A stretch of DNA of 19,618 nt from a virus (taxonomy: Duplodnaviria > Heunggongvirae > Uroviricota > Caudoviricetes): IMG/VR virus record IMGVR_UViG_2684622669_000001, positions 1 through 19,618 of that record; one strand, given 5' to 3'. The notes beneath the pieces were generated by a model that searched no databases, had not been told where the DNA came from, and worked only from the letters and a program-made list of their open reading frames with translations. Of this stretch, positions 1 through 19,618 are shown in pieces. The translations under genes and the position numbers were made by a program. The stretch's first letter is position 1. Every line of letters starts with the position of its first letter.

Positions 1-1
1 C

Positions 2-1473: not shown

Positions 1474-1576
1474 TTATTACAAAAGCCATTCCCTACAGAG
1501 TGGCTTTGATAATGGCTTATACCCTACACGGGATAACTTAACTGATATCCCTTTTAACGGATAAACGGAGCCAACA

Positions 1577-1819: not shown

Positions 1820-1821
1820 AC

Positions 1822-2262
1822 ATGGCGCGCCCAACAAAGTATCAAGAGGCGTATGCCGAACAGGCACGCAAACTGTGCTTGCTGGGCTACACCGATGCAG
1901 AGCTTGCTGATTTCTTCGAAGTTAGTGAGTCAACTATTAACAAGTGGAAGCTTGATTATCCTGAGTTTTCGGAGTCCATAAAAAAGGGTAAGGCCGTCGC
2001 TGATGCAGAAGTTAGTGACCGTCTTTATCAACGCGCTATGGGCTTCGTGGCTCCAGACATCGATATTCGTGTTATTGAAAACAGAATTGTCGAAACTCCG
2101 CTTGAGAAGTATTACCCGCCTGATACAACCGCCGCCATCTTCTGGCTTAAGAACCGACAGAAGGATAAATGGCGCGACAAGGTTGATCACGAGCTAACAG
2201 GCAAAGACGGCGGCGCAATCCAGATTGAAACATCACCGATGAGCACTCTATTCGGAAAATGA
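1822..2262 (+). CDS. Terminase small subunit (Sf6 gp1-like)
   Basis: 146 aa. The N-terminal HTH-like segment and the C-terminal ...GKDGGAIQIETSPMSTLFGK match the Sf6-type small terminase as I recall it. The stop overlaps the terL start (ATGA). Confidence 0.85.
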   Translation: MARPTKYQEAYAEQARKLCLLGYTDAELADFFEVSESTINKWKLDYPEFSESIKKGKAVADAEVSDRLYQRAMGFVAPDIDIRVIENRIVETPLEKYYPPDTTAAIFWLKNRQKDKWRDKVDHELTGKDGGAIQIETSPMSTLFGK

Positions 2263-3674
2263 CCTCGATTAATCCTATCTTTGAACCGTTCATTGAGGCG
2301 CATCGCTACAAAGTCGCCAAAGGCGGTCGAGGTAGCGGTAAGTCATGGGCAATTGCGAGACTGCTTGTTGAAGCGGCGCGTCGTCAGCCAGTGCGTATTC
2401 TCTGCGCTCGTGAACTGCAAAACAGTATCAGCGATTCGGTAATCCGGTTGCTTGAAGACACCATCGAGCGTGAAGGGTATACGGCTGAGTTTGAAATTCA
2501 GCGCTCCATGATTCGTCATCTCGGAACGAATGCTGAGTTCATGTTCTACGGCATCAAAAACAACCCGACGAAGATTAAATCGCTCGAAGGCATTGATATC
2601 TGCTGGGTGGAGGAAGCGGAAGCGGTAACGAAGGAATCATGGGATATCCTGATACCAACCATCCGCAAGCCATTTTCCGAAATATGGGTGAGCTTCAACC
2701 CGAAAAACATCCTCGACGATACCTATCAGCGATTCGTTGTAAATCCTCCCGATGATATTTGCCTGCTGACGGTGAACTACACCGACAACCCGCATTTTCC
2801 TGAAGTTCTCCGTCTGGAGATGGAAGAGTGTAAACGCAGAAATCCGACACTGTATCGTCACATCTGGCTTGGTGAGCCGGTAAGCGCAAGTGATATGGCA
2901 ATCATCAAACGAGAATGGCTTGAAGCTGCAACCGATGCGCACAAGAAACTCGGATGGAAAGCGAAAGGCGCTGTTGTCTCTGCGCATGACCCATCAGATA
3001 CAGGGCCAGATGCTAAAGGTTATGCATCGCGTCACGGTTCGGTAGTTAAGCGCATTGCCGAAGGTCTGCTGATGGACATCAACGAGGGTGCTGACTGGGC
3101 TACTTCGCTGGCAATTGAAGACGGCGCTGACCATTACCTGTGGGATGGTGATGGCGTCGGTGCGGGCCTACGCAGACAGACAACGGAAGCGTTCTCCGGC
3201 AAGAAAATCACCGCCACGATGTTCAAGGGCAGCGAATCGCCATTCGATGAAGATGCGCCTTATCAGGCCGGAGCATGGGCTGATGAAGTCGTGCAGGGAG
3301 ACAACGTCCGCACTATTGGCGATGTTTTCCGCAATAAGCGAGCGCAATTCTATTACGCGCTGGCTGACAGGCTGTATCTGACATATCGGGCGGTTGTTCA
3401 CGGTGAGTATGCAGACCCAGACGACATGCTGAGTTTCGACAAAGAAGCGATAGGCGAGAAGATGCTGGAGAAGCTGTTTGCAGAACTTACGCAGATTCAG
3501 CGCAAATTCAATAACAACGGGAAGCTGGAGCTTATGACTAAGGTCGAAATGAAGCAGAAGCTCGGTATTCCATCTCCTAACCTGGCTGATGCGCTGATGA
3601 TGTGTATGCATTGCCCGGAGTCGGCTGCGCAACCCGACTATTCCAGTTACTCAATTCCTTGTGGTGTAGGTTGA
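2259..3674 (+). CDS. Terminase large subunit (ATPase/nuclease)
   Basis: 471 aa. Walker-A-like VAKGGRGSGKSW near the N-terminus, acidic motif ICWVEEAEAV. Size and position match P22/Sf6-type TerL. Confidence 0.95.
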   Translation: MTSINPIFEPFIEAHRYKVAKGGRGSGKSWAIARLLVEAARRQPVRILCARELQNSISDSVIRLLEDTIEREGYTAEFEIQRSMIRHLGTNAEFMFYGIKNNPTKIKSLEGIDICWVEEAEAVTKESWDILIPTIRKPFSEIWVSFNPKNILDDTYQRFVVNPPDDICLLTVNYTDNPHFPEVLRLEMEECKRRNPTLYRHIWLGEPVSASDMAIIKREWLEAATDAHKKLGWKAKGAVVSAHDPSDTGPDAKGYASRHGSVVKRIAEGLLMDINEGADWATSLAIEDGADHYLWDGDGVGAGLRRQTTEAFSGKKITATMFKGSESPFDEDAPYQAGAWADEVVQGDNVRTIGDVFRNKRAQFYYALADRLYLTYRAVVHGEYADPDDMLSFDKEAIGEKMLEKLFAELTQIQRKFNNNGKLELMTKVEMKQKLGIPSPNLADALMMCMHCPESAAQPDYSSYSIPCGVG

Positions 3675-3675
3675 T

Positions 3676-5874: not shown

Positions 5875-5964
5875 TTAACCCATAACGTGCAATGGCTGTC
5901 TTTATGAGGCCAGGCACCCTATTGCCTTCCGATGGGCTGAACATCGAGTAAACAGGGGTAACAA

Positions 5965-6858
5965 ATGGACCAGATGGCAGAAAACACACCAGAAGTTGAA
6001 ATCGAAACCGACGCGTCAGAGCAGATTCCTGATGATGTCGAACTGGCTGAAGAAGTCGAAACAGAAGATGGCAGTGAGTCCTCCGGCAATGATGCAGAGG
6101 AAGCTACTGAAACTGATGACGACGAATCAGAACAGGAATTCTACTTTGGTGACGAAAAGCTGGATTCGCCAACCAGCGAAGATAGCGCAGAGCATGGACT
6201 GGTAAAACACCTGCGCAAGACGATTAAAGAGAAAGACCGCGAGCTGAAAGAGCTGATGCGTCAGTCTCAGAAACCCGTCGAGCAGCAGCCGGTAATCACT
6301 CAACCACCGAGAATGCCAAAACTGGACGATGAGGACATCGGTTTCGATGAAGAAATCTACCAGCAACGCATGGCTAAGTGGGCAGAGGATAACGGCAAGT
6401 ACCAGCAACAGGAGATGGCTCGCAAGCAGAAGGAGCAGGAGCTTCAGGCTGCCTATCAAGAGCGATTATCCAAATATCAGCAACGTGTTAAGGCCCTCAA
6501 AGTTCCTGGCTATCAGGAAGCTGAGCAGGCCGTACTCGAGGAAATCCCCATCGAGACACAAAACGCGATCCTGTTTGAGTCAGAGAAGCCGGAAATCGTT
6601 GTTCTGGCGCTCGGTCGCAACGCTGAACTGCGCAAGCAACTGGCAGAAGCTACCAACCCCGTAGCAATTGGTCGTCTGCTGGAACGTATCGAATCGAAGG
6701 CCAGAATCATGCCAAAAGCAAAAACCACGGCAGCCACAACCCCGACAGTTAAGGGGAGCAACGGCGCAGTAATCAATAACCTCGACAAACTGAAAGCCAA
6801 GGCGCTGGAAACTGGTGACTGGACGCCGTATTTCGCCGCTAAAAAGGCAAAAAAATAA
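5965..6858 (+). CDS. Scaffolding protein
   Basis: 297 aa (P22 gp8 is about 303 aa). Sits between portal and coat. Highly acidic N-terminus and Q/K/E-rich helical remainder. SD cagggg. Confidence 0.75.
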   Translation: MDQMAENTPEVEIETDASEQIPDDVELAEEVETEDGSESSGNDAEEATETDDDESEQEFYFGDEKLDSPTSEDSAEHGLVKHLRKTIKEKDRELKELMRQSQKPVEQQPVITQPPRMPKLDDEDIGFDEEIYQQRMAKWAEDNGKYQQQEMARKQKEQELQAAYQERLSKYQQRVKALKVPGYQEAEQAVLEEIPIETQNAILFESEKPEIVVLALGRNAELRKQLAEATNPVAIGRLLERIESKARIMPKAKTTAATTPTVKGSNGAVINNLDKLKAKALETGDWTPYFAAKKAKK

Positions 6859-6876
6859 CCTATCGGAGCATTAAGC

Positions 6877-8130
6877 ATGGCTAACCAATTAGCAAAAGAC
6901 CTTGAAATCATGTTCGAAAACTACGTTGAAGGCTTTGAGGCCGCCTGCGTAGTTTCCCGTAACGCTAAAAAATTCCGTCCCGGTGATACAGCAATGCAGC
7001 GAGCAGGTGATGTTCTGTATCGTCAGCAGCATTACCACATGAATATTGAGGAAGGCCTCGACCTCAGCAGCAAAACGCCAACAGCACTGGTTCAGCGCCT
7101 TGTTCCTTCTGTGTTCAAGGAGCCGAAAAACATTCTGTACACTCTGGATGCGCGTGAAATGCGTGACCCGGAACATAAAACTGAAGCTGGTCGCGCCGCA
7201 GGTATGCGCCTTGCTGCACAGATTGACTCTGACCTGATTTCCATGGTCACGCAGCGTGCTACTAACGTGATCACAATGTCTGACTCAACCACAGGTACAC
7301 AGGGCCGTGATTTGTGGAACTGTGCGGCAGGTATTGATGCCACCATGACGGCGATTGGTGTACCTCAGGGTATCAACCGTCGCTCTTTCTGGAACCCCTT
7401 CAACTACAAAGACCTTGCTGGCGAGCTTGGTCACCGTGCCTACGCTCAGGGCGCAACCCTGACAGCATACGAAAAAGCGCAGATCCCTCCGGTTGCTTCC
7501 TTTGATAGCTACAAGACCGATATTTCTGGTCGATTACCGAAAGGAAGCGCTGAATCCTTGACAGTATCAGGCCAACCTGAACACAAGGTTGAAGCGAAAG
7601 ATTTAAATGGTATGCCAGTTGATAACCGACAGGGGACTATTACGGTATCTGCATCTGGCTTGCAGGTTGGTGATGCGTTCACCATTGCCGGTGTGAATTC
7701 CGTACACCAGATCACAAAAGATACCACCGGGCAACCGCAGGTATTCCGTGTTCTGGCTGTTAGCGGAACTACCGTAACAATCTCTCCAAAGATTCTCCCT
7801 GTTGAAAATGCCGATGTTGCGAGTCGTCCATATGCAAACGTCGATGCCAAACCGGCAGCATCAGCAGCAATCACCATTCTCAACAAGAACGCAGCACCTG
7901 CTAACCTGTTCTGGGCTGATGGTTCTGTTGAGCTGATGTACGGCAAACTGGCGTTCCCGACTGGTCAGGGTCCACAGGTAATGACAGCAACCACCGAGCA
8001 GGGCGCTACGCTGATCATGTCTTACGCCTTCGACCACATCAAAGGTGTAACCACTGCGCGTTTCACCACCCTGTACGGTTGCTCTGTACTTGTTCCTGAA
8101 TATACGGGCATCGTTATTGCCGGGCAGTAA
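6877..8130 (+). CDS. Major capsid (coat) protein, P22 gp5-like
   Basis: 417 aa. Segments NAKKFRPGDTAMQRAGDVLY and ILNKNAAPANLFWADGSVELMYGKLAFP parallel P22 coat (KAKKYTPPAASMQRSS..., [26 protein letters not shown]) from memory. SD ggag. Confidence 0.9.
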   Translation: MANQLAKDLEIMFENYVEGFEAACVVSRNAKKFRPGDTAMQRAGDVLYRQQHYHMNIEEGLDLSSKTPTALVQRLVPSVFKEPKNILYTLDAREMRDPEHKTEAGRAAGMRLAAQIDSDLISMVTQRATNVITMSDSTTGTQGRDLWNCAAGIDATMTAIGVPQGINRRSFWNPFNYKDLAGELGHRAYAQGATLTAYEKAQIPPVASFDSYKTDISGRLPKGSAESLTVSGQPEHKVEAKDLNGMPVDNRQGTITVSASGLQVGDAFTIAGVNSVHQITKDTTGQPQVFRVLAVSGTTVTISPKILPVENADVASRPYANVDAKPAASAAITILNKNAAPANLFWADGSVELMYGKLAFPTGQGPQVMTATTEQGATLIMSYAFDHIKGVTTARFTTLYGCSVLVPEYTGIVIAGQ

Positions 8131-8136
8131 TTTTGG

Positions 8137-8157
8137 TGGGGCTTCGGCCCCATTTTT
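8137..8157 (+). terminator. Intrinsic terminator/attenuator after the coat gene
   Basis: tggggc (8137-8142) / ttcg loop / gcccca (8147-8152), followed by ttttt (8153-8157). Begins 7 nt after the coat stop codon. Confidence 0.6.
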
Positions 8158-8171
8158 ATTGGGAGAAGATA

Positions 8172-8360
8172 ATGGCACGAACAATGCTCTATAAGCCGGG
8201 CAACATGATCACCTGTGGTCAGTTTGCTGTCGATTACATCATTGTTGATGACGAAGAAGTTAAATCTCACCTGAAAAAAGGTTGGGTAAAAACTCCTGAA
8301 GAAACCGCAACGAAGCAAAAAGTGGCTAAGGCGGAAGAAGATGGCGAAAACGAAGGGTGA
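8172..8360 (+). CDS. Hypothetical small protein between coat and gp4-like genes
   Basis: The track ORF 8133-8360 is trimmed to the ATG at 8172, which has SD gggagaag upstream and lies after the terminator hairpin. 62 aa; its end overlaps the next gene. Confidence 0.5.
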   Translation: MARTMLYKPGNMITCGQFAVDYIIVDDEEVKSHLKKGWVKTPEETATKQKVAKAEEDGENEG

Positions 8361-8802
8361 TCTCGTTCTAAAGGCTTTACGAAAAGCCGGGCTGTATTCC
8401 AATGCCACGTTGACAGATGCCGACCCTCAGGCAATTGAAGATGCCATTAATGACCTCGAAGACATGATGGCAGCATGGCAGGCGAAAGGTATCGAGCTTG
8501 GATATCAGTTTGCTAATACAGAAAACGGCATCATGCCGTTACCTGACGATGATTCAGGTATCCCTGCATGGGCAAATGATGGCGTCGCTTTGAAACTCGC
8601 TGTGCAAGTGTGCATGGATAACGTCATTCAGCCGTCAGACGCTCTCCTTACCGCTGCTGACAGTGCATATCAAACAATCTGTATCGCTTTAACCAAAATA
8701 CCACCACTTGAGCGGCGAAATGACATGCCTCGCGGTAGTGGTAACAAAAGCGCGTTTACGTGGAATCGGTTTTACATCGAGAAAGATGATCCGAGTACGT
8801 GA
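8341..8802 (+). CDS. Head-completion / tail accessory protein (P22 gp4-like)
   Basis: 153 aa. KTKGDLVLKALRK, ATLTDADPQ, DLEDMMAAW and MPRGSGN parallel P22 gp4 motifs from memory. Synteny supports the call. Confidence 0.85.
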   Translation: MAKTKGDLVLKALRKAGLYSNATLTDADPQAIEDAINDLEDMMAAWQAKGIELGYQFANTENGIMPLPDDDSGIPAWANDGVALKLAVQVCMDNVIQPSDALLTAADSAYQTICIALTKIPPLERRNDMPRGSGNKSAFTWNRFYIEKDDPST

Positions 8803-8811
8803 GGTGAATAA

Positions 8812-10230
8812 ATGCCGATTCAGCAACTTCCGCTTATGAAAGGTGTCGGCAAAGACTTCCGAAACGCCGACTATATCGACTATCTGCCAGTGAATATGCT
8901 GGCTACACCCAAAGAAATCCTCAACAGCAGCGGATATCTTCGCTCATTCCCGGGCATTGCCAAACGTTCTGATGTGAATGGTGTATCGCGCGGCGTCGAG
9001 TACAACATGGCGCAGAATGCTGTTTATCGCGTGTGTGGTGGCAAGCTCTACAAAGGGGAAAGTGAAGTCGGTGACGTCGCCGGAAGTGATCGTGTATCAA
9101 TGGCGCATGGTCGGACATCACAGGCGATAGGTGTTAATGGTCAACTGGTCGAATACCGCTATGATGGCACGGTTAAAACCGTCTCAAACTGGCCTACTGA
9201 CAGCGGATTCACACAGTACGAGTTAGGTTCAGTTCGCGACATTACGCGCTTACGTGGGCGTTATGCGTGGTCAAAAGACGGCACTGATTCATGGTTTATC
9301 ACTGACCTTGAAGACGAATCGCATCCTGACCGCTACAGCGCACAATATCGCGCAGAATCGCAGCCGGACGGCATCATCGGTATCGGGACATGGCGAGACT
9401 TCATCGTCTGCTTTGGTTCATCGACTATTGAATATTTTTCCCTGACAGGTGCAACCACCGTTGGTGCCGCTTTGTATGTCGCACAGCCATCGCTGATGGT
9501 GCAGAAAGGCATTGCCGGAACTTACTGCAAAACGCCGTTTGCTGATTCGTATGCGTTCATCAGCAATCCGGCAACAGGTGCGCCGTCTGTGTATATCATC
9601 GGCTCTGGTCAGGTATCACCAATCGCCAGCGCGAGCGTTGAGAAAATCCTCCGCTCCTACACTGCTGATGAACTGGCTGATGGCGTGATGGAGTCTCTGC
9701 GCTTTGATGCTCATGAGTTGCTGATTATCCACCTTCCTCGCCATGTTCTCGTGTACGACGCATCTTCAAGCGCCAATGGTCCGCAATGGTGTGTACTGAA
9801 AACAGGCTTGTATGACGATGTGTACCGCGCTATCGACTTCATTTACGAAGGAAATCAGATAACGTGCGGCGATAAGCTGGAATCGGTTATCGGCAAATTG
9901 CAGTTCGATATCAGCAGCCAGTACGACAAGCAACAGGAACACCTGTTGTTTACTCCGTTGTTCAAAGCGGATAACGCAAGAGTGTTCGACCTTGAGGTTG
10001 AATCTTCAACTGGCGTTGCGCAGTACGCTGACCGCCTGTTCCTCTCTGCAACCACTGACGGAATCAATTACGGACGTGAGCAGATGATTGAACAGAATGA
10101 ACCGTTCGTTTACGACAAACGTGTTTTGTGGAAGCGAGTAGGGCGCATCAGGAAAAATGTCGGTTTCAAATTGCGCGTTATCACGAAGTCACCTGTAACT
10201 CTGTCTGGCGCTCAGATAAGGATTGAGTAA
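8812..10230 (+). CDS. Tail accessory / hub protein (P22 gp10-like)
   Basis: 472 aa, the same length as P22 gp10. The N-terminus [49 protein letters not shown] is near-identical to my recollection of gp10. SD gaggtga. Confidence 0.9.
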
Positions 10231-10931
10231 TGGCGGATTCGAATCTCAATACACCTGTTATTGTTCAGGCGACGCGGCTCGATACATCAGTCCTTCCACG
10301 CAATATCTTCTCGCAGTCATATCTGCTGTACGTTATTGCACAGGGTGCTGATGTTGGTAACGTGGCTAACAAAGCCAACGAGGCAGGACAGGGCGCTTAT
10401 GATGCACAAGTCAGGAACGATGAGCAGGATGTGATTCTCGATGACCACGATGCAAGAATCACCGCAAACACAAAAGCGATAAATCTCCTTGAGGTCAGGT
10501 TAACAACCGCCGAAGGGAAGATAGTCGTACTGCGTAGCGATGTTGATTACTTGCTGGATGAGGTTATCGATATTCAGGCGCATCTTGTCACTGTTGACAA
10601 AAGACTGGAGGGCGTAGAAAGCGATGTATCTGACATTAAGAGTGATTACGTATCGAAAACCGTAACCGAATCGCAGTCTCTTGCGTCACCACTGAATGTA
10701 AAAACATCATATTCAGTTGATGGAATTCAGGTTGTTGGAGCAAGAAATACCGGATGGACTGCAGCCACAGGTACGCCACTTCTTGGCTCATTCAACGCTA
10801 ACCAGTCATACACTGTCGGCACTACGTACACACAATCCGAAGTCGCAGCTCTCGCTACAGGTTTGCAGCAGGCGCGGCAGCGTATTCTGGCGCTTGAAAC
10901 GGCACTTAGATTACATGGGCTGATTGACTGA
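10230..10931 (+). CDS. Tail needle (P22 gp26-like), trimeric coiled-coil plug
   Basis: 233 aa, the same length as P22 gp26. The N-terminus [39 protein letters not shown] and the C-terminal ...[19 protein letters not shown]... match gp26 from memory. TAATG overlap with the upstream gene. Confidence 0.9.
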
Positions 10932-11386
10932 TGATTACATTCAAACCAACGCGAAACATCGACCTGATAGAAGCAGTCGGAAATCACCCTGACATTATCG
11001 CCGGGAGCAACAACGGTGATGGATACGACTACAAACCTGATTGCCGTTACTTTGAGGTGAACGTGCACGGGCAGTTCGGCGGCATTGTTTACTATCAGGA
11101 GATTCAGCCGCTGACATTCGATTGCCACGCCATGTACCTGCCAGAGGTTCGCGGCTTCAGCAAGGAAATCGGGCTGGCGTTCTGGCGATACATTCTGATT
11201 AACACCACCGTTCAGTGCGTCACATCGTTCGCTGCACGCAAATTCCGCCACGGTCAGATGTATTGCGCAATGATTGGCCTTAATCGTGTAGGAACCATCA
11301 AGAAATACTTCAAAGGCGTGGATGACGTGACGTTTTACAGCGCCACACGCGAAGAACTAATCGACTTCCTGAATCACGGGAGATAG
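10931..11386 (+). CDS. gp14-like virion/ejection-associated protein (by synteny)
   Basis: 151 aa. Occupies the gene-14 position of the P22 order, with a TGATG overlap to the needle gene. Assignment is by position, not by sequence recollection. Confidence 0.6.
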   Translation: MITFKPTRNIDLIEAVGNHPDIIAGSNNGDGYDYKPDCRYFEVNVHGQFGGIVYYQEIQPLTFDCHAMYLPEVRGFSKEIGLAFWRYILINTTVQCVTSFAARKFRHGQMYCAMIGLNRVGTIKKYFKGVDDVTFYSATREELIDFLNHGR

Positions 11387-11388
11387 CC

Positions 11389-12081
11389 ATGTTATATGCA
11401 TTTACGCTGGGCAGAAAACTGCGCGGCGAGGAACCTTATTGCCCTGAAAAAGGCGGGAAAGGTGGCAGTTCTGATAAAAGCGCAAAGTATGCCGCAGAAG
11501 CTCAGAAGTATGCCGCAGACCTGCAAAATAAGCAGTTCAACACCATCATGAACAACCTGAAGCCGTTTACTCCTCTGGCTGATAAGTATCTCGGCAGCCT
11601 CGAGAACTTATCGTCTCTGGAAGGGCAAGGTCAGGCACTTAACCAGTATTACAACTCTCAGCAGTACAAAGATCTTGCTGGTCAGGCTCGCTATCAGAGT
11701 CTGGCGGCAGCGGAAGCAACAGGTGGATTGGGTTCCACCGCAACCAGTAATCAGTTAGCAACAATCGCACCAACGCTTGGTCAGCAATGGCTATCTGGAC
11801 AAATGAACAATTACAACAACCTGGCAAATATCGGTCTTGGCGCTCTTCAGGGGCAGGCAAACGCCGGGCAAACATATGCCAACAACATGAGTCAGATTTC
11901 ACAGCAAAGCGCGGCGCTGGCTGCGGCAAACGCCAACCGACCGTCAGCATTGCAGCAGGGGGTTAGTGGTGCTGCATCCGGTGCGCTTTTGGGTGGTGGC
12001 ATAGCCAGTGCTCTCGAGCTATCAACTCCGTGGGGTGCTGGTATCGGTGCTGGTCTTGGTCTGCTTGGCTCGTTGTTTTAA
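11389..12081 (+). CDS. Ejection (internal virion) protein, P22 gp7-like
   Basis: 230 aa (P22 gp7 is about 229 aa). Q/N/A/G-rich low-complexity protein with a Gly-rich hydrophobic C-terminus (GGGIASALELSTPWGAGIGAGLGLLGSLF). SD gggaga. Confidence 0.7.
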   Translation: MLYAFTLGRKLRGEEPYCPEKGGKGGSSDKSAKYAAEAQKYAADLQNKQFNTIMNNLKPFTPLADKYLGSLENLSSLEGQGQALNQYYNSQQYKDLAGQARYQSLAAAEATGGLGSTATSNQLATIAPTLGQQWLSGQMNNYNNLANIGLGALQGQANAGQTYANNMSQISQQSAALAAANANRPSALQQGVSGAASGALLGGGIASALELSTPWGAGIGAGLGLLGSLF

Positions 12082-12091
12082 GGGGTAATCA

Positions 12092-13441
12092 ATGGCTACG
12101 TGGCAACAGGGTATTAATTCTGGTGGTTTTCTGGCTGGCATCGGTACGCAAAATGAGAATGCGCCAAAGGCAAGCGACATTAACGCAACGCTTGGTCTGA
12201 TCCGCGAAAACAATGAGTTGGCTCGCTCAGGTGCAAATAACGTTGGTCTGACCGCGTTACGTGGTCTGGCTGGAGTTGCTGATATTTATAAGCAGGAACA
12301 GCAACAGAAAGCGATTAATGCGTTCAATAAGGTTCATGCTGATGCATGGGCTTCTGGTGATCCATCGGGACTATTTAAGTTTGCCAAGGAAAATCCAGCG
12401 TTTGTTGCGCAGGCACAACAGGCGTTTTCCGGTCTTAATGAGCAGCAACGCAACGATATGGGCGATTTAGCCATGAGAGCTAACGTCGCTCTTTCTCAGG
12501 GACCGGAAGCCTACAGTAAATTCATTACTGACAACAAGGACAGGTTAAATCGCGTTGGCGCTAATGCTGACTGGATGATTCAGACAGGTATCCAGAATCC
12601 AGAGCAGCTATCACACATGCTGACTACTATGTCTCTCGGTGCGCTTGGACCAGAAAAGGCGTTTGCTGTTCAGGATAAGATGGTTGGTCGCCAGCAGGAG
12701 CAGCAAAGAATTAAAGAAACCATTCGCAATAATGACATGACGAATGCGAGGGCTATTAGGGGTCAGGATCTTTCCTATAAGGCTCAAATGGCAAGACTGA
12801 ATCACGACAAGTATGTGTTTAAGCAGTCACAGGCGGCCCTTGAAAGAGCAGGACAACTTCAGGATATGGATGTTTTGTCTCTTAACTCACAGATAGCAGC
12901 GACGGGAATTGATCCGCTAACCGGTAAAGCTGCAACGTCAGCCAGAATGTCTCAGGCTAAGAGATGGCTTGATGGCAACAATAATTACAACAATGCGTTA
13001 ATTACTGGTGAGCGAGGGATAGAGAAAATTGATTCTTTGCTTGGTAAGAAGGAGCTTGAAGGTATTGGTCGCTTCGAAGGAAGAAATATAGATGGCTTCA
13101 CAAGTGCTGAAGGGCTTGCAAACCGTAATGCGATAGAAGAATTAAAGTCGGGGGCGTTTGTCCAGAACGTGCAGACTATGCGAGGTATGGGTAGCCTCTC
13201 CAATGCTGAAGGCCAAAAACTGGAAAACCTGATCGCGAAACTCGATATAACACAGCCTGAAGAGGTCGTCAGAAAACAGTTATCTGAAATCCGATCGCAA
13301 TATTCTGTATTTCAAAAGGTTGCAGCAAGGGAGGCTGAATCAATGGGATATAGTTCATCAGGTTATGACACATATGTTAGTGAGCGAAAATCAGGAAGCG
13401 ACAGCAATAAGTCCGGTTTCTCGTCTTTATGGGGTGATTAA
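12092..13441 (+). CDS. Ejection protein, P22 gp20-like
   Basis: 449 aa (P22 gp20 is about 471 aa). Position in the operon; SD aagggg. Confidence 0.7.
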
Positions 13442-15609
13442 TGGCTAAAGCATGGAAAGATGTTATCGCTTCTCCACAGTATCAGGCGTTAACTGAAGAA
13501 CAGAAAGCACAGGCTCAAGCGCAATATTTTGATGAGGTTGTTGCCCCTAAGGCTGGTGACAAATGGGCTGAAGCAAGAGATCAGTTTTATGCAGCATACC
13601 CTCCGCCTCAGCAGCAGAAAGAAGAACCATCATTGATGCAACAAGCTGGCGATTGGCTCACTGGTGGTCAAAGTGCAGGGCAAATTGCAGAACAGGCTGG
13701 TCGTGGTCTGGTAAACATACCATTTGACGTATTGCAGGGTGGCGCAAGTCTGATTAATGCAATCAGCCAGGGGCTTGGTGGCCCCAAGGTTTTGGATGAT
13801 GTTTATCGCCCTGTCGATCGACCGACAGACCCTTGGGCGCAAGCCGGTGAAACATTTGGGGGGTATCTCCTGCCAATTGGCACAGCGGCAAAAGCTGCTG
13901 GAGCGACAGCAAAGCTCGCAGGAGACATCGGTTCCGCAGGAAACATGATTGCAGGTTCTCTTGCTGATGCTGCAAATCAGGAGGGCGATTTTGCACAAAA
14001 TGCTGCCATTAATGGTGGTATCAATATTGGTGCTCAGGGGATACTTTCTGGGGCTGGAAGGATCTTAACCTCTAAATCACCTCAAGTTCTTGGTGGCGGG
14101 GCAATAAATTCCGCTGCTGATGTTTCGAAAATGGCAAAGTCTGGTACAGGAAGAGAGATTATTGCCAGACAGTCAGCTAATGTGTCAGACGAAATAGCAA
14201 AAGCAGCAGATACTGCTGGAATAGATATCAACGCATTAACTCCTGGCATGAGATCAGGTAGTCGTGGTCTTGCTCAGGCGGAGGGGATTCTGGCGTCAAA
14301 GCCCGGAATTACACAGGATGCACACACCAAAGCATTCAGTGAAATAGAGTCGAAATTTAACTCAGCATTGGATGAGTTTGGGGCTGAAGCAGGAACTGCA
14401 TCAGAAAAAAGTGCAGCCATAAAACAAAGGGTTTTGGCAAGTATTGATAAAATGAAAAATTCAGAAAAGGCCGCATGGGATAGCGTCCGCTCCACGATTC
14501 CTGACGCAAAGGCCAGAATGTCAAACCTGAACGCTACAATTCAGGGTGATATTTTGGCTGGCATGCCGCTAACTCCTGAGATGAAACAATTCGCATCTGC
14601 TTATGCTAAAACTGGTAAAAAAGGAATCACGTTTGATGCCATGAAGGCATGGCGAAGTAAACTTGCTGACGCAGAGCAGAAGTATATAAGGTCTGGTGAG
14701 GCAAATACGGCAAGGCGCATGGCTGAGCTTCGTGATGCAGCAACGGAAGATATGCGCATAATGGCTCAAAATGGCGGTTTTCTTGATGACTGGCAAAAAG
14801 CTAATGATCTGTCAAAGGCAAGATTTACAGCACAAGAACAGGCTGAAGCAGCGTTTGGTAGAGACCTTGCAACTGATCAGTTGGTAACTAATGGATCTAA
14901 GGCGTTACAGGGTTCAGCAAAAAGTGGAACAGGTCAGTTCCATAAAATAATAAGCGCCCTACCTGAGTCGGAACGCGCGCCAGCAATTGCATCAATATTA
15001 CAAGATGCAATGTCGCAAGGGGTACGCGGAGGTAAGTCTGAAGAGGCTGGAATTAAGCATATCGCGACTATTCTTACCCCACAAAACGTGAAGGCAATTA
15101 GTCGATATTCTCCAGAACTTGGCAGGATTACAAGTTCATACGGAGAACTTGCACGAGCAGCAACAAAGCCACTTCGATATGTTGAACAGACAGGGCGATC
15201 TATGCCAGCCATTAGCACTCTTGAGAATGGCCTTCATCCAGTTTTAGAGAGCGCATTGTCTGGCGCTTTTAGAACTACTGGCACTATCGCAGGGTTCTCT
15301 GGAGGAGGCGTTATTGGAGCAATAGCGGGTGGCGCTGCAGGTGGGGCAATTGATGCAATGGCAAAAGGAGCGATAGCGAAATTATCCGCAACTAGAAGCG
15401 GTCGTTACGCTATTGAAAAGGCTGTTCAAGAGGCAACAAAGGCAGTTAAGGTTGGGGCAAGTGATGGCGCATTAGCGGCGGCGGAACGCAGATTTATGGC
15501 AAATAAGGCCGCCGTAAAAGCAATACGCGAGGCACTAGGAAACGAAGAGTTCCAGCGTTTAGCAAGAGCTGGAATTGTGGCATCGCTAAGCGGAATGGCA
15601 CAGGAGTAA
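13441..15609 (+). CDS. Ejection protein, P22 gp16-like (longer than P22 gp16)
   Basis: 722 aa, last gene of the virion operon, TAATG overlap with the upstream gene. Gly/Ala-rich hydrophobic segment near the C-terminus ([30 protein letters not shown]). Confidence 0.7.
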
Positions 15610-15939
15610 TTAGTCATCCATGGATGGATTGAGCTTATCTCGTGTTGATGTGGCAATTTTCCCAACATTTTTCAACCAAGATTTTAAGAAGGATATGTCG
15701 TCCTTAATATCATGAATATCCTCATTCTTTATACGATCAACCTTATCCTCTAAGCTCTCTATAGAACGCTCAATGCTAGACAGAGAGATTTTTAAGTCCC
15801 CTTGCTCACGTTCCAGTGAGGATTTGAGAGCACAATATTCGTTTTCTAGAATTCCTATTTTTTTTGTTAGAGAGTGCATTCGATACTCATACACCAAACC
15901 AGAAACGACTAATGCAGCCAACAGAAACCATTCAAGCAC
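15610..15939 (-). CDS. Hypothetical membrane-anchored coiled-coil protein (accessory gene)
   Basis: The track ORF 15610-16155(-) is trimmed to the in-frame GTG at 15937-15939, which has a perfect SD aaggagg 5 nt upstream. Predicted product has an N-terminal hydrophobic helix (LEWFLLAALVVSGLVYEY) then a heptad-like charged region. Stop abuts the gp16-like stop. AT-rich. Confidence 0.5.
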   Translation of the reverse strand: MLEWFLLAALVVSGLVYEYRMHSLTKKIGILENEYCALKSSLEREQGDLKISLSSIERSIESLEDKVDRIKNEDIHDIKDDISFLKSWLKNVGKIATSTRDKLNPSMDD

Positions 15940-15969
15940 ACCAACCTCCTTAGTTTTGAACAGGATACC

Positions 15970-16335
15970 ATGAAAAAAGTTAACATTGGAAACGTACCAA
16001 AGATGCTCGTTCCGCTCTTTGAGAGCGGTACAATTGTGTTTTGTAGAGACTTTCCAGAATGGCAACGCCTGCATCAAAAACTTGGCGTTGACGTGCATGA
16101 CTCGGACGCCAACGGAGCGTCTCATACAATGAGTAGCGAGAATGGTGTTTTGCATGTGATAGGCGTGTTCAATGGCAAACTATCTACTATTGCCCATGAG
16201 TGCGCTCACATGGCATTCGATATCTGCTCAAGGGTAGGTGTTGATGTTGAACTAGGAAGAGCCAACGAGACTTACTGCTACTTAATGAGCAGGCTTGTTG
16301 AGTTCTGCGAGCGACATATCAAAAAGCCGGAGTGA
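15970..16335 (+). CDS. Hypothetical HExxH-motif protein (putative minimal zincin-like metallopeptidase)
   Basis: 121 aa, SD agga 4 nt upstream of ATG. Contains IAHECAHMAFD (HExxH) with a downstream Glu in NETYCY, the gluzincin spacing. Stop codon sits in the loop of a terminator hairpin. Confidence 0.6.
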   Translation: MKKVNIGNVPKMLVPLFESGTIVFCRDFPEWQRLHQKLGVDVHDSDANGASHTMSSENGVLHVIGVFNGKLSTIAHECAHMAFDICSRVGVDVELGRANETYCYLMSRLVEFCERHIKKPE

Positions 16336-16343
16336 CCCGGCTT
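16324..16343. terminator. Bidirectional terminator between convergent accessory genes
   Basis: aagccgg (16324-16330) / agtgac / ccggctt (16337-16343). Flanked by aaaaa upstream and a T-rich stretch downstream, so both strands get a U-tract. Confidence 0.5.
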
Positions 16344-16348
16344 GATTA

Positions 16349-16528
16349 TTACTTTTTGCTGTCTGGAGTTCGCTTATCCAATACCCAGCCATGACCTGGC
16401 TTTGTTGTTGGTGGAAGCCTTTCGTTGTCCTTGACGGTTGCAAAATTGTCTTTCTTACCGCCGCGTGGGCCAACTTCTTGGTATATTCCGCCGTTTTTTC
16501 CTGTGTTTTCACCTGGTTTTTTCGCCAT
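16349..16528 (-). CDS. YjzC-like small protein (tentative family call)
   Basis: The track ORF 16349-16543(-) is trimmed to the second ATG (16526-16528), which has SD gagg 6 nt upstream. The 59-aa product MAKKPGENTGKNGGIYQEVGPRGG...ERLPPTTKPGHGWVL fits the YjzC pattern as recalled. Confidence 0.45.
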   Translation of the reverse strand: MAKKPGENTGKNGGIYQEVGPRGGKKDNFATVKDNERLPPTTKPGHGWVLDKRTPDSKK

Positions 16529-16610
16529 GATATACCTCAACATATACCCGTTATTGGGCGATTAAATATTGATCTCATTTTATAAGTAGTCAATATGGTC
16601 CAAAAAAGGC

Positions 16611-16645
16611 AAAAATTAACCCACCTTCAGGTGGGTTTTTTGTTT
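16611..16645. terminator. Bidirectional intrinsic terminator overlapping the 3' end of the Mnt-like gene
   Basis: aacccacc (16618-16625) / ttca / ggtgggtt (16630-16637), then tttttgttt on + and aattttt on the minus side. The Mnt-like stop codon (16627-16629) is in the loop. Confidence 0.6.
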
Positions 16646-16947
16646 AGCAGTTCTCTCAACTTTTCGTTCTGCTCTCTGAACTTTTCCTGTATTTCTTTTT
16701 GCATGGCGATAACCTGGGCTTGAAGTTGAACTAGCGCATCAACATTTAGCGGAACCGAGACGCTGTTGATTTTATCTGCTATTTCCCCGAGTGTATTTTC
16801 TGCATTCAAGGCATCTTCCAGTATCTGAACAATCTCTGAGTTCATTGATCTGCCGTTACGTTTGGCTCGTTCAGCTATAGCATCCCGCATTCCTGCAGGA
16901 AGCCTGATATTGAACCTATCCATTTCATGACTAGGGAACTTGCTCAT
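16627..16947 (-). CDS. Mnt/Arc-family ribbon-helix-helix repressor (Mnt-like paralogue 1) with extended C-terminal coiled coil
   Basis: 106 aa. FNIRLPAGMRDAIAERAKRNGRSMNSEIVQILEDAL matches the Arc/Mnt RHH motif (P22 Mnt: FNFRMPMEVREKLKFRAEANGRSMNSELLQIVQDAL, from memory). SD gagg. Divergent from the Arc-like gene. Confidence 0.8.
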   Translation of the reverse strand: MSKFPSHEMDRFNIRLPAGMRDAIAERAKRNGRSMNSEIVQILEDALNAENTLGEIADKINSVSVPLNVDALVQLQAQVIAMQKEIQEKFREQNEKLRELLNKKPT

Positions 16948-16989
16948 ATGACCTCAACGTAAAGATGTTCGCTAAACAATAGCACCAAC

Positions 16990-17029
16990 TTGACATCAAA
17001 ATAAATGGTGTTAAATTGGTTCTAGAACC
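16990..17029 (+). promoter_or_regulatory. Candidate rightward promoter (-35 TTGACA, -10 TAAATT) with overlapping palindromic operator
   Basis: TTGACA at 16990-16995, a 16-nt spacer, then TAAATT at 17012-17017. Perfect 12-bp palindrome GGTTCTAGAACC at 17018-17029, inside a 21-bp near-palindrome AATTGGTTCTAGAACCAAGTT (17014-17034). Confidence 0.45.
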
Positions 17030-17058
17030 AAGTTGGCATCATTGTGGGAGGATTACTT

Positions 17059-17232
17059 ATGAAAGATGTGCTTTACACAGGTCGTAAAAGTCAAAGTTTC
17101 CAGCTTCGTTTGCCAGCGCGAATGAAGGAGGAGATTAGACGTGTTGCTGAAATGGATGGAATTTCTATCAACTCTGCGATTGTGCAGCGACTGGCTAAAA
17201 GCCTGAGAGAGGAAAGAGCTAATGCCCAGTAA
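17059..17232 (+). CDS. Arc-like ribbon-helix-helix repressor
   Basis: The track ORF is trimmed to the ATG at 17059, with SD gggagg 7 nt upstream. 57 aa. FQLRLPARMKEEIRRVAEMDGISINSAIVQRL parallels P22 Arc (FNLRWPREVLDLVRKVAEENGRSVNSEIYQRV, from memory). Confidence 0.75.
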   Translation: MKDVLYTGRKSQSFQLRLPARMKEEIRRVAEMDGISINSAIVQRLAKSLREERANAQ

Positions 17233-17312
17233 AAATAGTGAAGCCCGGCAGTGCGTGAACACAAACCGGGCCTCTATGTCAGTAACCGTATGCAAGGAAA
17301 CTAACATGAATA
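17233..17312 (-). ncRNA. Candidate sar-like antisense RNA opposite the antirepressor ribosome-binding site (hypothetical)
   Basis: Minus-strand -10-like hexamers just inside the ant-like start (TACAAT = + 17312-17317; TATAAT = + 17328-17333). Minus-strand GC hairpin 17243-17272 followed by a U-rich stretch in the arc-ant spacer. Analogy to P22 sar RNA. Confidence 0.25.
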
Positions 17313-17932
17313 TTGTAGCAAAATCAGATTATAACTTCCACGGAGTTGAATTGGTGCCCACCCGTGATATGCATGGTGTTTGGTTTACATCATCTAATAT
17401 TGCATCTGCACTTAAATACGCAAATAGTCGTGCAGTAACAATGATTTATAACAAGTATAGCGATGAGTTTAGCGCCGGAATGACTCAGGTACTCGAAGTG
17501 AGTACCTCAGGAAATTATCGCAAAAAAGTGCGTGTTTTCTCACTACGCGGTGCCCACCTAATCGCGATGTTTGCTCGCACTCAGGTAGCCAAAGAGTTCC
17601 GCCGCTGGGTGCTGGATATTTTGGATCGGCAGGCAGAATGCTCACCGATTGCAAAACAGTTTACTGACGAAGAACTGGTTAATCTCTGCTACTTACAATT
17701 GTGGATGGAGAAGAGTCAACAAATGTGCAAACACATCTACCCAGGAATGAAGCAAATTGGTTCTGAGCTTTCAGGAAGGATTTACGATATTGCATATGAG
17801 ACTCGCTACATGTCAGAAGAAACCAAGAAATCACTTCTTCGTGAAATGAAGAATCTTGATACCAACAATTTTGTCGTAAAGAACGCTCAGCCAATGCTGG
17901 CAAAACTGCGCGGCGAGGAATGGATTCATTGA
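17306..17932 (+). CDS. Antirepressor-like protein (Bro-N / P22 antirepressor N-terminal-like domain)
   Basis: The track ORF 17222-17932 is trimmed to the ATG at 17306, with SD aagga 6 nt upstream. 208 aa. ...FSLRGAHLIAMFARTQVAKEFRRWVLDIL... is typical of Bro-N/antirepressor N-domains. Position after arc mirrors P22 arc-ant. Confidence 0.7.
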   Translation: MNIVAKSDYNFHGVELVPTRDMHGVWFTSSNIASALKYANSRAVTMIYNKYSDEFSAGMTQVLEVSTSGNYRKKVRVFSLRGAHLIAMFARTQVAKEFRRWVLDILDRQAECSPIAKQFTDEELVNLCYLQLWMEKSQQMCKHIYPGMKQIGSELSGRIYDIAYETRYMSEETKKSLLREMKNLDTNNFVVKNAQPMLAKLRGEEWIH

Positions 17933-17950
17933 TTGGTGCGCCGGACTGCG

Positions 17951-18026
17951 CAAAAAGAAAACCGCCAGTGTGCTGCTGGCGGCCTATGTCACACACTTAC
18001 TACCACATAAGGAATGCCTAATGACT
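17951..18026 (-). ncRNA. Second candidate antisense RNA with its own minus-strand terminator (hypothetical)
   Basis: Stem ccgccag (17962-17968) / ctggcgg (17976-17982). On the minus strand it is followed directly by GTTTTCTTTTTG (rc of 17951-17961); the + strand has no T-tract. Minus-strand promoter-like GTGACA-17 nt-TACATT inside the first codons of the 18021 gene. Confidence 0.25.
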
Positions 18027-18746
18027 TTTAAGAATGTAGCAAACATCGGATCCGTTGTCACGGATAAAACCATTGACAGCCAAAGTCTTCTGATGATGGT
18101 TAATGAAGCTCGCAAGTTATGTGGAGAGCCATCAGTACGTAACAACAAATTCATCGAGAAAATTGAGGATGAATTGGAAGGCGAGACCTACACAAAAAGT
18201 GTAGGTCGGAAAAACGGGGCTGACATTGATGTTATCTCCATGACTATCAAGCAGGCGCTTCGTGTTGCTGCTCGCGAATCTAAAGCAGTTCGCCGAACAC
18301 TTGTAGACAAACTTGAAAGTATGCAGGAAGCGCACATTAAAAGCGGTAAATCAGCGAGTGGACTTGTTGAGTATCGTCAAGCGCGAACATTGAAAATGAC
18401 GGTTGAAGCTGTTACCAATCTGTTCGATCTGATGCCAAATCTTGCGCCGGAGGCAAAGCAGACAGCGGCAGCAAGTATAATCAACCCGCTCGTTGGTTTT
18501 AATGCAATACCTCTTCCGGCAATAGAAGAGCATTACTACTCAGCAGGGGAGGTTGCAGAGCAGCTTGGAGTAACGGCCAACAAGATTGGTCGCATTGCTA
18601 ACGCAAACAACCTCAAAACTGAGCAGTACGGGAAGTTCTTCCTGGATAAATCTGCGCATTCCAGCAAACAGGTGGAAGCGTTCCGCTACAATGAGGAAGG
18701 TGTTAAAGCACTACAACACCTGATTCATGGGAGTAATGTTGCATAA
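18021..18746 (+). CDS. Second antirepressor-like / phage regulatory protein (Rha/ORF6N-like N-terminus, KilAC-like C-terminus; tentative)
   Basis: The track ORF 17970-18746 is trimmed to the ATG at 18021, with SD aaggaa 6 nt upstream. 241 aa. The N-terminal region (TIDSQSLLMMVNEARKLCG...) is Rha/ORF6N-like and the C-terminal region (YYSAGEVAEQLGVTANKIGRIANANNL...) is KilAC-like. Domain calls are from memory. Confidence 0.55.
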   Translation: MTFKNVANIGSVVTDKTIDSQSLLMMVNEARKLCGEPSVRNNKFIEKIEDELEGETYTKSVGRKNGADIDVISMTIKQALRVAARESKAVRRTLVDKLESMQEAHIKSGKSASGLVEYRQARTLKMTVEAVTNLFDLMPNLAPEAKQTAAASIINPLVGFNAIPLPAIEEHYYSAGEVAEQLGVTANKIGRIANANNLKTEQYGKFFLDKSAHSSKQVEAFRYNEEGVKALQHLIHGSNVA

Positions 18747-18967
18747 TGGCAAAGAAAAAATATGGCATTATGCCGCCAAGAATCAAAGGAAGAGCCAGGG
18801 TAAAAGGCGATGCTGGAAGGTATCACATTCTTGGAGTTCTGTGGCATGAGAGAGCTTTAATTTTAAGTAGACCTCATGGGTACATTGAAAAGGTATCTAT
18901 AGATAGAGTAGAGATTCTTCCCCTTACACCTGAAGAAGAAGAAACGTACGGACTTTTTGATAACTAA
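18746..18967 (+). CDS. Hypothetical small basic protein, translationally coupled to the upstream gene
   Basis: 73 aa. Start ATG overlaps the upstream stop (TAATG). Followed by a strong terminator. Confidence 0.45.
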   Translation: MAKKKYGIMPPRIKGRARVKGDAGRYHILGVLWHERALILSRPHGYIEKVSIDRVEILPLTPEEEETYGLFDN

Positions 18968-18973
18968 CCAGCT

Positions 18974-19004
18974 AAACCCGCTTAATCGCGGGTTTTTTCT
19001 TTTC
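18974..19004 (+). terminator. Intrinsic terminator ending the rightward accessory operon
   Basis: aaacccgc (18974-18981) / ttaatc / gcgggttt (18988-18995), followed by ttt and cttttc. The minus-strand Mnt-like stop codon (18982-18984) is in the loop. Confidence 0.6.
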
Positions 19005-19239
19005 TAAGGATATCAGCCGCAACTTCTTTTACTCGCTCCGAGATTAATGAGGCCAACCTCTCTTCTTCATCACGATACCCGCTTACAGGTGATGGTTTGG
19101 AGAGTGATTCTTCCATCGTAGCCACAATTTCGGAATTGATAGACCTGTTATTCATTTTTGCACGCTGCTTAATCTTAGCGTGCAACTCGTGCGTAAGCCT
19201 CAAGTGGAACTGCGCCTCATCGTATTTGCTGTACATCAT
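18982..19239 (-). CDS. Mnt-like ribbon-helix-helix repressor (paralogue 2, closest to P22 Mnt)
   Basis: The track ORF 18982-19320(-) is trimmed to ATGATG at 19234-19239, with SD gagg 5 nt upstream. 85 aa. QFHLRLTHELHAKIKQRAKMNNRSINSEIV...SKPSPVSGYRDEEERLA parallels P22 Mnt (...NGRSMNSELL...SKPSPVTGYRNDAERLA, from memory). Confidence 0.8.
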   Translation of the reverse strand: MMYSKYDEAQFHLRLTHELHAKIKQRAKMNNRSINSEIVATMEESLSKPSPVSGYRDEEERLASLISERVKEVAADILRKEKTRD

Positions 19240-19371
19240 CAATGCCTCACCAAATGGGTGGAATGGCATCGTAAAACCTACTGTACAAATCAACAATCGT
19301 ACCATTTCGGTATGCAACAAACATCAACCGTAGCCATGCTGCGGCGATTCCTTGTATCTGGAGCAAATTAA

Positions 19372-19530
19372 ATGACAGACATTACAGCCAATGTGATCGT
19401 ATCGATGCCTTCGCAACTCTTCACTATGGCGCGTTCTTTTAAAGCTGTAGCTAATGGCAAAATTTATATCGGTAAAATTGATACTGACCCAGTAAATCCA
19501 GAAAACCAGATTCAGGTTTATGTAGAGAAC
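19372..19530 (+). pseudogene. Tailspike gene, N-terminal head-binding domain only (interrupted by IS2)
   Basis: [53 protein letters not shown] matches the conserved P22/Sf6/HK620 tailspike N-terminus. After codon 53 the reading frame enters an IS end and no longer resembles tailspike. Confidence 0.85.
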
Positions 19531-19618
19531 TGGATTTGCCCCTATATTTCCAGACACCTGTTATCACTTAACCCATTACTGGCCTGCTGCCGCAGATATT
19601 CCCGTGGCGAGCGATAAC
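19531..19618 (-). mobile_element. IS2 (IS3 family) terminal inverted repeat and 3' end of the transposase gene, partial (continues beyond window)
   Basis: TGGATTTGCCCCTATATTTCCAGACACCTGTTATCACTTAACCC matches the IS2 terminal inverted repeat as recalled. The minus-strand translation of 19545-19618 gives ...[24 protein letters not shown], typical of an IS3-family OrfB C-terminus. Confidence 0.8.
19542..19618 (-). CDS. IS2 transposase OrfB C-terminal fragment (partial, 5' part outside window)
   Basis: Minus-strand frame ends with stop TAG (+ 19542-19544) after ...[26 protein letters not shown]. This ending is characteristic of IS3-family transposases. Confidence 0.7.

Follow-up and report, generated by a model that had tools for sequence, protein, structure and literature searches.

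In this work, we analyzed the junction between two consecutive antirepressor genes, ant1 and ant2, in a 19,618-nucleotide (nt) stretch of viral DNA (IMG/VR record IMGVR_UViG_2684622669_000001, positions 1 to 19,618; hereafter, the window), which corresponds to the late region of a P22-like phage or prophage (Lederbergvirus). The results point towards an antisense RNA gene on the strand opposite to ant2, built like the sar gene of phage P22, whose product would repress ant2; we give this reading a probability of about 0.75. The cassette in question consists of a terminator hairpin in the ant1-ant2 spacer and a predicted promoter, Psar2, that would read leftward from the first codons of ant2, and its anatomy, conservation, strand and modularity are matters of observation. 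Relatives of ant2 were gathered from IMG/VR (80 loci), from one-genome-per-species contigs (34 loci) and from isolated phages, and the whole comparison comprised about 200 related loci. The positions of all features are collected in Table 1.

The hairpin itself had been described in an earlier note on this DNA, and the sequence bears it out: the arms CCGCCAG (17962-17968) and CTGGCGG (17976-17982) enclose the loop tgtgctg (17969-17975). The same note had claimed a U-tract on the minus strand only, and this holds for positions 17961-17951, which read TTTTCTTTTTG on that strand and CAAAAAGAAAA on the plus strand (17951-17961), although the 12-mer it gave included one base of the stem. On the plus strand the stem is followed by CCTATGTCAC, which contains no T-tract, so that the hairpin is not a plus-strand intrinsic terminator; the claim that it could not terminate transcription of the upstream gene was therefore correct, all the more since its pairing covaries and is strand-specific, as detailed below. 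A site scan of 15500-19618 ranked it first among the terminator-like sites (minus strand, 17985..17959, with 10 pairs, 6 of them G-C, then TTTTCTTTTT), and it lies 35 nt upstream of ant2; within the window, terminator-like sites were moderately enriched (9 found versus 3.6 +/- 2.1 expected).

An A-tract followed by a hairpin is located 30-40 nt ahead of the ATG in every enterobacterial ant2 relative of at least 60% identity, with the exception of the L039-L043 group and the Shiga toxin (Stx)-phage type, and the relatives that bear it (60-100% identity) belong to Escherichia, Klebsiella, Serratia, Citrobacter, Proteus, Erwinia, Kluyvera and Buttiauxella. The stem occurs in five variants according to lineage (CCGCCAG; CCGCCAA with TTGGCGG; GCCGATAG; GCCAATAG; and CCAGCAG), and the A-tract is always 5' of the hairpin on the plus strand. 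In a covariation alignment of 24 distinct predicted RNAs, (i) 99.1% of the cells of the terminator were paired, (ii) changes on both sides were seen in 4 of its 9 pairs, (iii) none of the 7 core pairs was ever broken, with none of 500 shuffles equaling the observed values, and (iv) the T-rich tail was present in all 24 sequences. Furthermore, L078, L085 and Klebsiella phage klb_E have one G-U pair in the minus-strand reading that corresponds to an A-C mismatch in the plus-strand RNA, which argues that the molecule that folds is the minus-strand RNA. A G+C-rich stem, an adjoining U-tract and pairing kept in evolution, the hallmarks of an intrinsic terminator, are all found on the minus strand.

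Nevertheless, the stem also folds in plus-strand RNA (-18.3 kcal/mol, 17949-18026) and adjoins the stop codon of ant1, as would be expected if it acted in the plus-strand mRNA as a stabilizer of the 3' end of a processed arc-ant1 message, as a target of RNase III or as a pause site between ant1 and ant2, the minus-strand T-tract being incidental. We consider this highly improbable: the three sequences just mentioned have mismatches in that reading and pairs in the other, a plus-strand hairpin would have no use for an A-tract conserved on the 5' side only, the hairpin accompanies ant2-type genes and not ant1, and the ant2 relatives of Stx phages have at the same place a true plus-strand terminator and no antisense promoter. 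On the ant1 side, the T-tract is directly adjoined by a small additional hairpin, GCGCCGGACTGCGC (17937-17951), which is part of the ant1-linked flank and is missing where another gene precedes the cassette.

The other end of the candidate gene lies within ant2. The elements GTGACA-17-TGnTACATT span codons 5-14 of ant2 and match the consensus at 9 of 12 positions plus the TG. Since a single-sequence match of this kind is at chance level, the case for Psar2 rests on comparative data. GTGACA-N17-TAnnnT with TGn was present in 42 of the 44 distinct upstream sequences of ant2 relatives, and the spacer was always of 17 nt, with at least 11 different spacer sequences. Across 18 diverse ant2-type genes, only 14 of 238 third-codon positions are invariant, and six of these 14 (codons 2, 5, 6, 7, 12 and 13) are predicted promoter positions (Fisher p = 7e-9), namely the +1 A, two -10 positions, the G of the extended -10 TG and two -35 positions. 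Several of these codons keep the base while the amino acid changes: codon 2 is ACT, AGT or CTT, with an invariant A at +6 (18026); the third bases of codons 5, 6 and 7 are fixed despite the alternatives N/T, L/V and A/S/T, codon 7 being GCA, ACA or TCA; and codon 12 ends in T throughout, whichever of five amino acids it encodes (GTT, TCT, ACT, GCT, ATT). Val13 is always GTC. The surrounding codons 3, 4, 8-11, 14 and 15 vary freely, which indicates that this is not simply a slowly evolving stretch. The elements of the promoter GTGACA-17-TACATT, which the earlier note had located in the first codons of the gene starting at 18021, thus stay invariant at both synonymous and amino-acid-changing positions, with a fixed spacer. 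All the elements of a sigma-70 extended -10 promoter (-35, 17-nt spacer, TGn, TAnnnT and a purine at +1) are found in the sequence, and we regard Psar2 as a predicted promoter of this class.

These invariant positions also bear on the alternative that the hairpin terminates longer leftward transcripts, for example from the gene at 18982-19239, and that the match to Psar2 is a by-product of coding. A minus-strand gene is indeed present downstream of ant2 and the 73-codon open reading frame (ORF) that follows it, the terminator at 18974-18995 has a clear T-tract on the plus strand only, and the single-sequence promoter match does not exceed chance. Coding, however, does not explain fixed +1, -10, TG and -35 third-codon bases across different amino acids; besides, the hairpin and the promoter motif persist while the context downstream of ant2 differs among loci, and the mosaic module described below stops right after the -35. 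For these reasons, we judge longer leftward transcripts to be a very unlikely explanation.

A leftward transcript from Psar2 to the hairpin would have 75 nt, in agreement with the RNA of about 75 nt over the Shine-Dalgarno (SD) sequence and start codon that had been proposed earlier. This predicted RNA, hereafter sar2-like RNA, is fully complementary to the ant2 mRNA from about -69 to +6, SD and AUG included. In every lineage its predicted length is 65-78 nt, with a 5' hairpin followed by the terminator. The 5' hairpin was predicted in 16 of 16 lineages and folds better than shuffled sequences, with z scores ranging from -0.75, the weak value of the window's own stem-loop, to -4.25; only in some lineages does the apical loop contain the anti-SD. 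On these predictions, the existence of the 5' hairpin is plausible. The ant2-linked RNAs were used to build a covariance model (R1), which recovered the window (17952-18026 minus, 85 bits), Escherichia phage JEP4 and, at 49.9 bits, an independent copy in Klebsiella phage klb_E. Rfam searches of the whole window and of short sub-windows, at gathering and lenient thresholds, returned no credible family for either this RNA or the candidate upstream of ant1 discussed below; matches to symR, Hrs13 and rseX were at chance level and were rejected. No report of an ant2-linked RNA was found in the literature searched, and a Salmonella prophage transcriptome paper does not cover the ant2-linked element (PMC7067206).

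The same strand also has a 56-codon ORF (17984-18154), whose end lies 1 nt ahead of the hairpin and which is also found in several close relatives, so that the hairpin could be the terminator of a gene for a small minus-strand protein of 56 amino acids. We give this hardly any credence: L068, L074, L083, L086, L090, L091 and L118 lack the ORF or have only a very short one, its end point shifts between lineages, and such a pattern is what a chance open frame opposite a coding region typically shows.

The segment from the terminator to the promoter appears to move as one module. Upstream, the mosaic joint is at the A-tract, and at least five unrelated genes precede the cassette among the ant2 loci. 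Moreover, L123, where the downstream gene is of the ORF6N type, and L156, of the ant2 type, share similarity only between the T-tract and the base following TGTCAC, with both flanks unrelated; the unit that is inherited and exchanged therefore corresponds to the antisense RNA gene, from terminator to -35. A scan of IMG/VR for AAAACCGCCAG-N5-8-CTGGCGG retrieved at least 120 loci. Among the matches listed, an ORF starts 22-54 nt downstream in 98, and the antisense promoter [GT][TC]GACA-N17-TGnTAnnnT is present in the first codons of the downstream ORF at 80 of the 118 hairpin-pattern sites with enough downstream sequence to test, compared with 0.3% of 75-nt windows drawn at random from these loci. 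The genes downstream of the hairpin are of the PHROG 1726, ORF6N, Phage_pRha (with a KilAC or an ant2-like C-terminus) and KilA-N plus KilAC types, the last falling outside the 80 because its -35 is ATGACA. In each type, the Pfam domain begins at residue 15-25, after a leader of 14-20 residues that holds the promoter. Judged from these sequence comparisons, the unit of about 115 base pairs (bp), from T-tract to -35, behaves as a portable cassette associated with at least four N-terminal domain families. In the ORF6N-type second antirepressors starting MQQS... (L126, L121, L192 and others), the promoter is TCGACA-17-TGCTACATT and is located 9 or 15 nt deeper in the gene, which places the predicted +1 at +15 or +21; there, the RNA would also cover the first 5-7 codons.

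The same element was expected in the Stx-phage and L039-type relatives of ant2, and this expectation had to be rejected. In Stx2a phage F451 (L117 1440-1500) and in L039-L043, a plus-strand terminator, AATCCTCGC...GCGGGGATTTCTTTT, is found upstream of the ant2 relative, and there is no antisense promoter. These relatives (about 62% identity for the Stx type and 92% for L039-L043) have a different N-terminus and lie outside an immI-type operon, which ties the cassette to the operon context and not to the protein.

The earlier note had further suggested that each antirepressor gene has its own antisense regulator, and the comparison supports this. The arc-ant1 spacer contains a relative of P22 sar (sar1 in Table 1), which aligns with it across the promoter and the 5' end (TTGCTACAATATTCAT and GTTAGTTT, versus TTGCTATACTATTCAT and GTTGGTTT in P22). 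At the equivalent position, two related loci exceed the threshold of the Rfam sar family RF00262 (43 bits), with 45.2 bits in L086 and 44.6 bits in L088, and six further loci have sub-threshold matches; the window's own sar1 gave no RF00262 match, being too divergent a copy for the model. The -10, followed by nTTCAT-G, is kept in 22 of 22 first antirepressor genes examined, whatever their family.

First-position antirepressor genes of several types begin M-[NKST]-x-[IVL]-[ASTQ] (window 17306-17320; L002 15091-15105; 21 related loci). What these N-termini have in common is the imprint left on the coding sequence by the embedded Psar -10 (TAYAMT) plus the opposite-strand nTTCAT-G. At another location, about 1 kb downstream of ant2 in L060 (4159-4250), sub-threshold sar matches were obtained on both strands (39.2 and 33.6 bits); this site may be another sar-type element or a palindromic terminator.

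How might such an RNA act? Ant2 is transcribed, as we picture it, together with arc and ant1, and the site scan gave it no promoter of its own. Rightward transcription from the Pant-like promoter would read through the hairpin, and so would late transcription if it crosses the region as in P22, where it must cross the immI operon to reach the tailspike gene (PMC2629481; PMC12111858). Psar2 would fire leftward from the A at about 18026, and the resulting RNA of about 75 nt would end at the terminator in the ant1-ant2 spacer. By analogy with sar (PMC12197685), it would pair with the ant2 mRNA, occupy the SD and the AUG and block translation initiation; the duplex may also be exposed to RNase III. 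Arc/Mnt-type repression of Pant cannot silence read-through ant2 mRNA, and an antisense RNA shuts only the ribosome-binding site (RBS) that it overlaps; on this logic, a second antirepressor gene would need a second RNA.

Several points weigh against repression of ant2 by a sar-like RNA. First, the antisense RNA and its expression are predicted from sequence, and the translational repression of ant2 is drawn purely by analogy with sar. Second, promoter-like sites occur in the window at the frequency expected by chance (7 found versus 7.2 +/- 2.3 expected), and the promoter overlaps coding sequence, so that part of the constraint (V13, T14) could be derived from the protein. Third, the sequences compared are phylogenetically related, and the shuffle and Fisher statistics overstate their independence. 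In addition, the whole RNA has an unremarkable fold (z = -1.4), part of the anti-SD is paired in the window's clade, and MAFFT plus RNAalifold recovered the terminator only, with no formal covariation for the 5' stem-loop, where the alignment was not structure-aware.

It is also conceivable that the RNA is made but that its main job is not the repression of ant2 in cis, and that convergent transcription from Psar2 instead hinders Pant, or late transcription that reads through into ant2 and the tailspike gene, or that the RNA of a prophage serves in trans as an immunity determinant against superinfecting phages with the same cassette. Psar2 and Pant are convergent and about 1 kb apart, and the operon is placed ahead of the tailspike gene as in P22; in favor of a role in trans, sar has been classed as trans-acting (PMC12197685), and the several sequence classes of hairpin and 5' domain could define specificities. 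Against this, the only extended complementarity examined is the RBS and AUG overlapped by the RNA, and the placement over SD and AUG is kept in every lineage, as expected of translational control and unneeded for interference alone. We therefore see such a main job as unlikely; interference and immunity in trans are, at any rate, compatible with repression in cis and not alternatives to it.

Table 1 Features of the arc-ant1-ant2 region of the window; coordinates on the minus strand are given in the direction of reading where the order matters
Feature	Position	Strand	Remarks
Arc/Mnt-like ribbon-helix-helix gene	16627-16947	minus	divergent from Pant, as mnt in P22
Pant-like promoter, TTGACA-16-TAAATT	16990-17017	plus	from site scan; heads the arc-ant1-ant2 operon
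arc-like gene	17059-17232	plus	Pfam Arc, E = 8e-12; first gene of the operon
sar1, relative of P22 sar	17235-17305	minus	in arc-ant1 spacer; two hairpins, z = -6.2
sar1 terminator	arc-ant1 spacer	minus	GAGGCCCGG...CCGGGCTTC, then ACTATTTTT
sar1 promoter, -10 TACAAT	17316-17311	minus	inside ant1 codons 2-4
ant1	17306-17932	plus	208 amino acids; Bro-N and P22_AR_C domains
Intrinsic terminator of the predicted sar2-like RNA	17951-17985	minus	core stem 17982-17976 with 17968-17962; loop 17975-17969; tail TTTTCTTTTTG 17961-17951
Predicted sar2-like RNA	18026 to about 17952	minus	75 nt; +1 = A at 18026, 7 nt past the -10
Predicted 5' stem-loop of sar2-like RNA	17988-18025	minus	outer stem GUCAU/GUGAC; contains anti-SD UUCCUU
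SD of ant2, AAGGAA	18009-18014	plus	
ATG of ant2	18021-18023	plus	
ant2	18021-18746	plus	241 amino acids; PHROG 1726 'anti-repressor'
Predicted extended -10 of Psar2, TGC-TACATT	18041-18033	minus	TG 18041-18040, hexamer 18038-18033; 17 nt from -35; ant2 codons 5-7
Predicted -35 of Psar2, GTGACA	18061-18056	minus	plus strand TGTCAC = third base of codon 12, Val13 GTC and first two bases of Thr14
73-codon ORF	after ant2, before the terminator at 18974-18995		
ant operon terminator	18974-18995	plus	strong hairpin before the tailspike gene, like the P22 ant terminator
Second Arc/Mnt-like ribbon-helix-helix gene	18982-19239	minus	convergent; just ahead of the tailspike gene
Tailspike gene	from 19372		

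The region under study corresponds to an immI-type region located, like that of P22, between the DNA-ejection genes and the tailspike gene, and the gene order in every locus examined is mnt-like gene (minus strand), arc, [sar], first ant, [second RNA], second ant. Escherichia phage JEP4 (MT740315) is the nearest isolated relative in the phage collection (98% identity over 17226-19100); its ant2 is annotated as 'KilA protein', and the ant2 protein of the window gave zero matches to Pfam. The same junction is present at 98.7% identity in E. coli HS (L239), which has a 57-codon 'hypothetical protein' (1710-1883) where the window has the arc-like gene, and an IS3-family element (2672-4473) that interrupts ant2, with the upstream antisense cassette intact. 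The full junction occurs in 46 complete E. coli genomes. The annotation of E. coli HS has no RNA gene at the junction, and in the records of both E. coli HS and JEP4 the features annotated at the site of the cassette are protein-coding only.

As regards other features of the region, the two Arc/Mnt-like genes, both on the minus strand, flank the arc-ant1-ant2 operon. A strong hairpin at 16618-16637 is flanked by a T-tract on either side, and it probably terminates transcription in both directions behind the mnt-like gene. Many P1-like E. coli plasmids (167 plasmid matches) have an ant/KilAC antirepressor gene with 77-78% identity to about 80 nt within ant2 (18069-18150), which hints at exchange between P22-like and P1-like immI regions.

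P22 sar is a textbook antisense RNA, so far regarded as one element belonging to one operon. In the literature searched, it is discussed only for P22, epsilon34 and UAB_Phi20, with a single sar per P22-type immI region. The two-antirepressor operon described here, widespread in enterobacteria, would instead carry two antisense RNA genes, a sar relative and a member of a second family undetected by Rfam. As far as we have searched, the mechanism class is known, while the sequence family, the tandem layout of two RNAs and the portability of the cassette appear to be undescribed. In a 2008 comparison, the epsilon34 genome paper described HS-1/CUS-3-type 'ant morons' with putative antirepressor genes, apparently without arc, whose control must differ from that of P22 (PMC2629481); in contrast to that comment, they appear to use the logic of P22, twice over. 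If expressed, the cassette would add a new family of phage small RNAs, the N-terminal leader shared by unrelated antirepressors would be explained, and a rule suggests itself whereby an antirepressor gene crossed by late read-through needs its own RBS-covering antisense RNA.

It is tempting to speculate further, although we hold it to be doubtful, that the cassette is a self-contained, horizontally mobile 'RNA lock' that is attached to any antirepressor gene behind the first in an immI-type operon, with a leader that exists only as promoter code, and that its classes are RNA-based immunity specificities. Such classes would tentatively comprise at least five terminator stems, a number of 5' domains and promoters in two registers (+1 at +6 or at +15/+21). 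By analogy with c4 between P1 and P7, the RNA of a prophage might then silence in trans the matching antirepressor of a superinfecting relative, a possibility that we likewise put forward with reserve.

The comparison with known antisense RNAs begins with sar itself. In the annotated P22 genome, sar occupies 15021-15090 on the minus strand, Psar lies inside ant (15097-15125; ATG at 15091) and the terminator is in the arc-ant spacer. P22 sar and the sar2-like RNA share the same phage region and a position after an arc-like gene; each is antisense to an antirepressor RBS; each has an opposite-strand promoter that overlaps the first target codons and includes a TGn extended -10 (TGCTATACT in P22, TGCTACATT in the window); each has its terminator in the spacer upstream of the target, where rightward transcription reads through that of sar and would read through that of the sar2-like RNA; and their sizes are similar (68-70 versus 75 nt). 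Sar consists of two stem-loops, a 5' hairpin that exposes the anti-SD and a 3' terminator hairpin; in the sar2-like RNA, the terminator has strong support and the 5' hairpin is predicted with modest z scores. In contrast, sar starts at -1, whereas the sar2-like RNA starts at +6 and covers the AUG; the terminator stem is of 14 bp (GAAGCCC) in sar and of 7-10 bp (CCGCCAG) in the sar2-like RNA; P22 Ant matches P22_AR_N and P22_AR_C, whereas ant2 lacks P22_AR domains; and the sar2-like RNA is the second such RNA of its operon, where a sar relative already serves ant1. RF00262 gave no match in the window at the gathering threshold, nor at E <= 10 over 16400-19100 and 17930-18080 (151 nt), while P22, as a positive control, scored 97.8 bits. 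R1, in turn, does not match P22 sar or the window's sar1, and common ancestry could not be shown. A shared TGACATAG(A)GGCC motif and the TTTGCTACA -10 region were considered as evidence of kinship and rejected as too short. By these model searches, the sar2-like element fails sar family membership and is built like sar but a separate sequence family.

Sar is listed as trans-acting, and c4 of P1/P7 is a small RNA that controls the antirepressor by pairing near the ribosome-binding site and determines immunity specificity (PMC12197685). Both c4, which belongs to the immI region of P1/P7 and blocks icd/ant, and the sar2-like RNA are small RNAs aimed at antirepressor synthesis. C4 is processed from the transcript of its own target and pairs through short loop sequences, and is not a fully complementary opposite-strand RNA; the sar2-like element, unlike c4, has its own opposite-strand promoter and terminator, as predicted here. 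The Rfam searches of the window gave no match to c4. Finally, lambda OOP, P22 sas and the P22 gene 23 antisense RNA are likewise short cis-antisense RNAs with their own promoter and intrinsic terminator that tune a regulator of the lysis-lysogeny decision. These RNAs overlap the 3' end or the interior of their targets and act by RNase III cleavage or as a translational switch, whereas the sar2-like RNA would cover the RBS from a promoter embedded in the first codons of its target.

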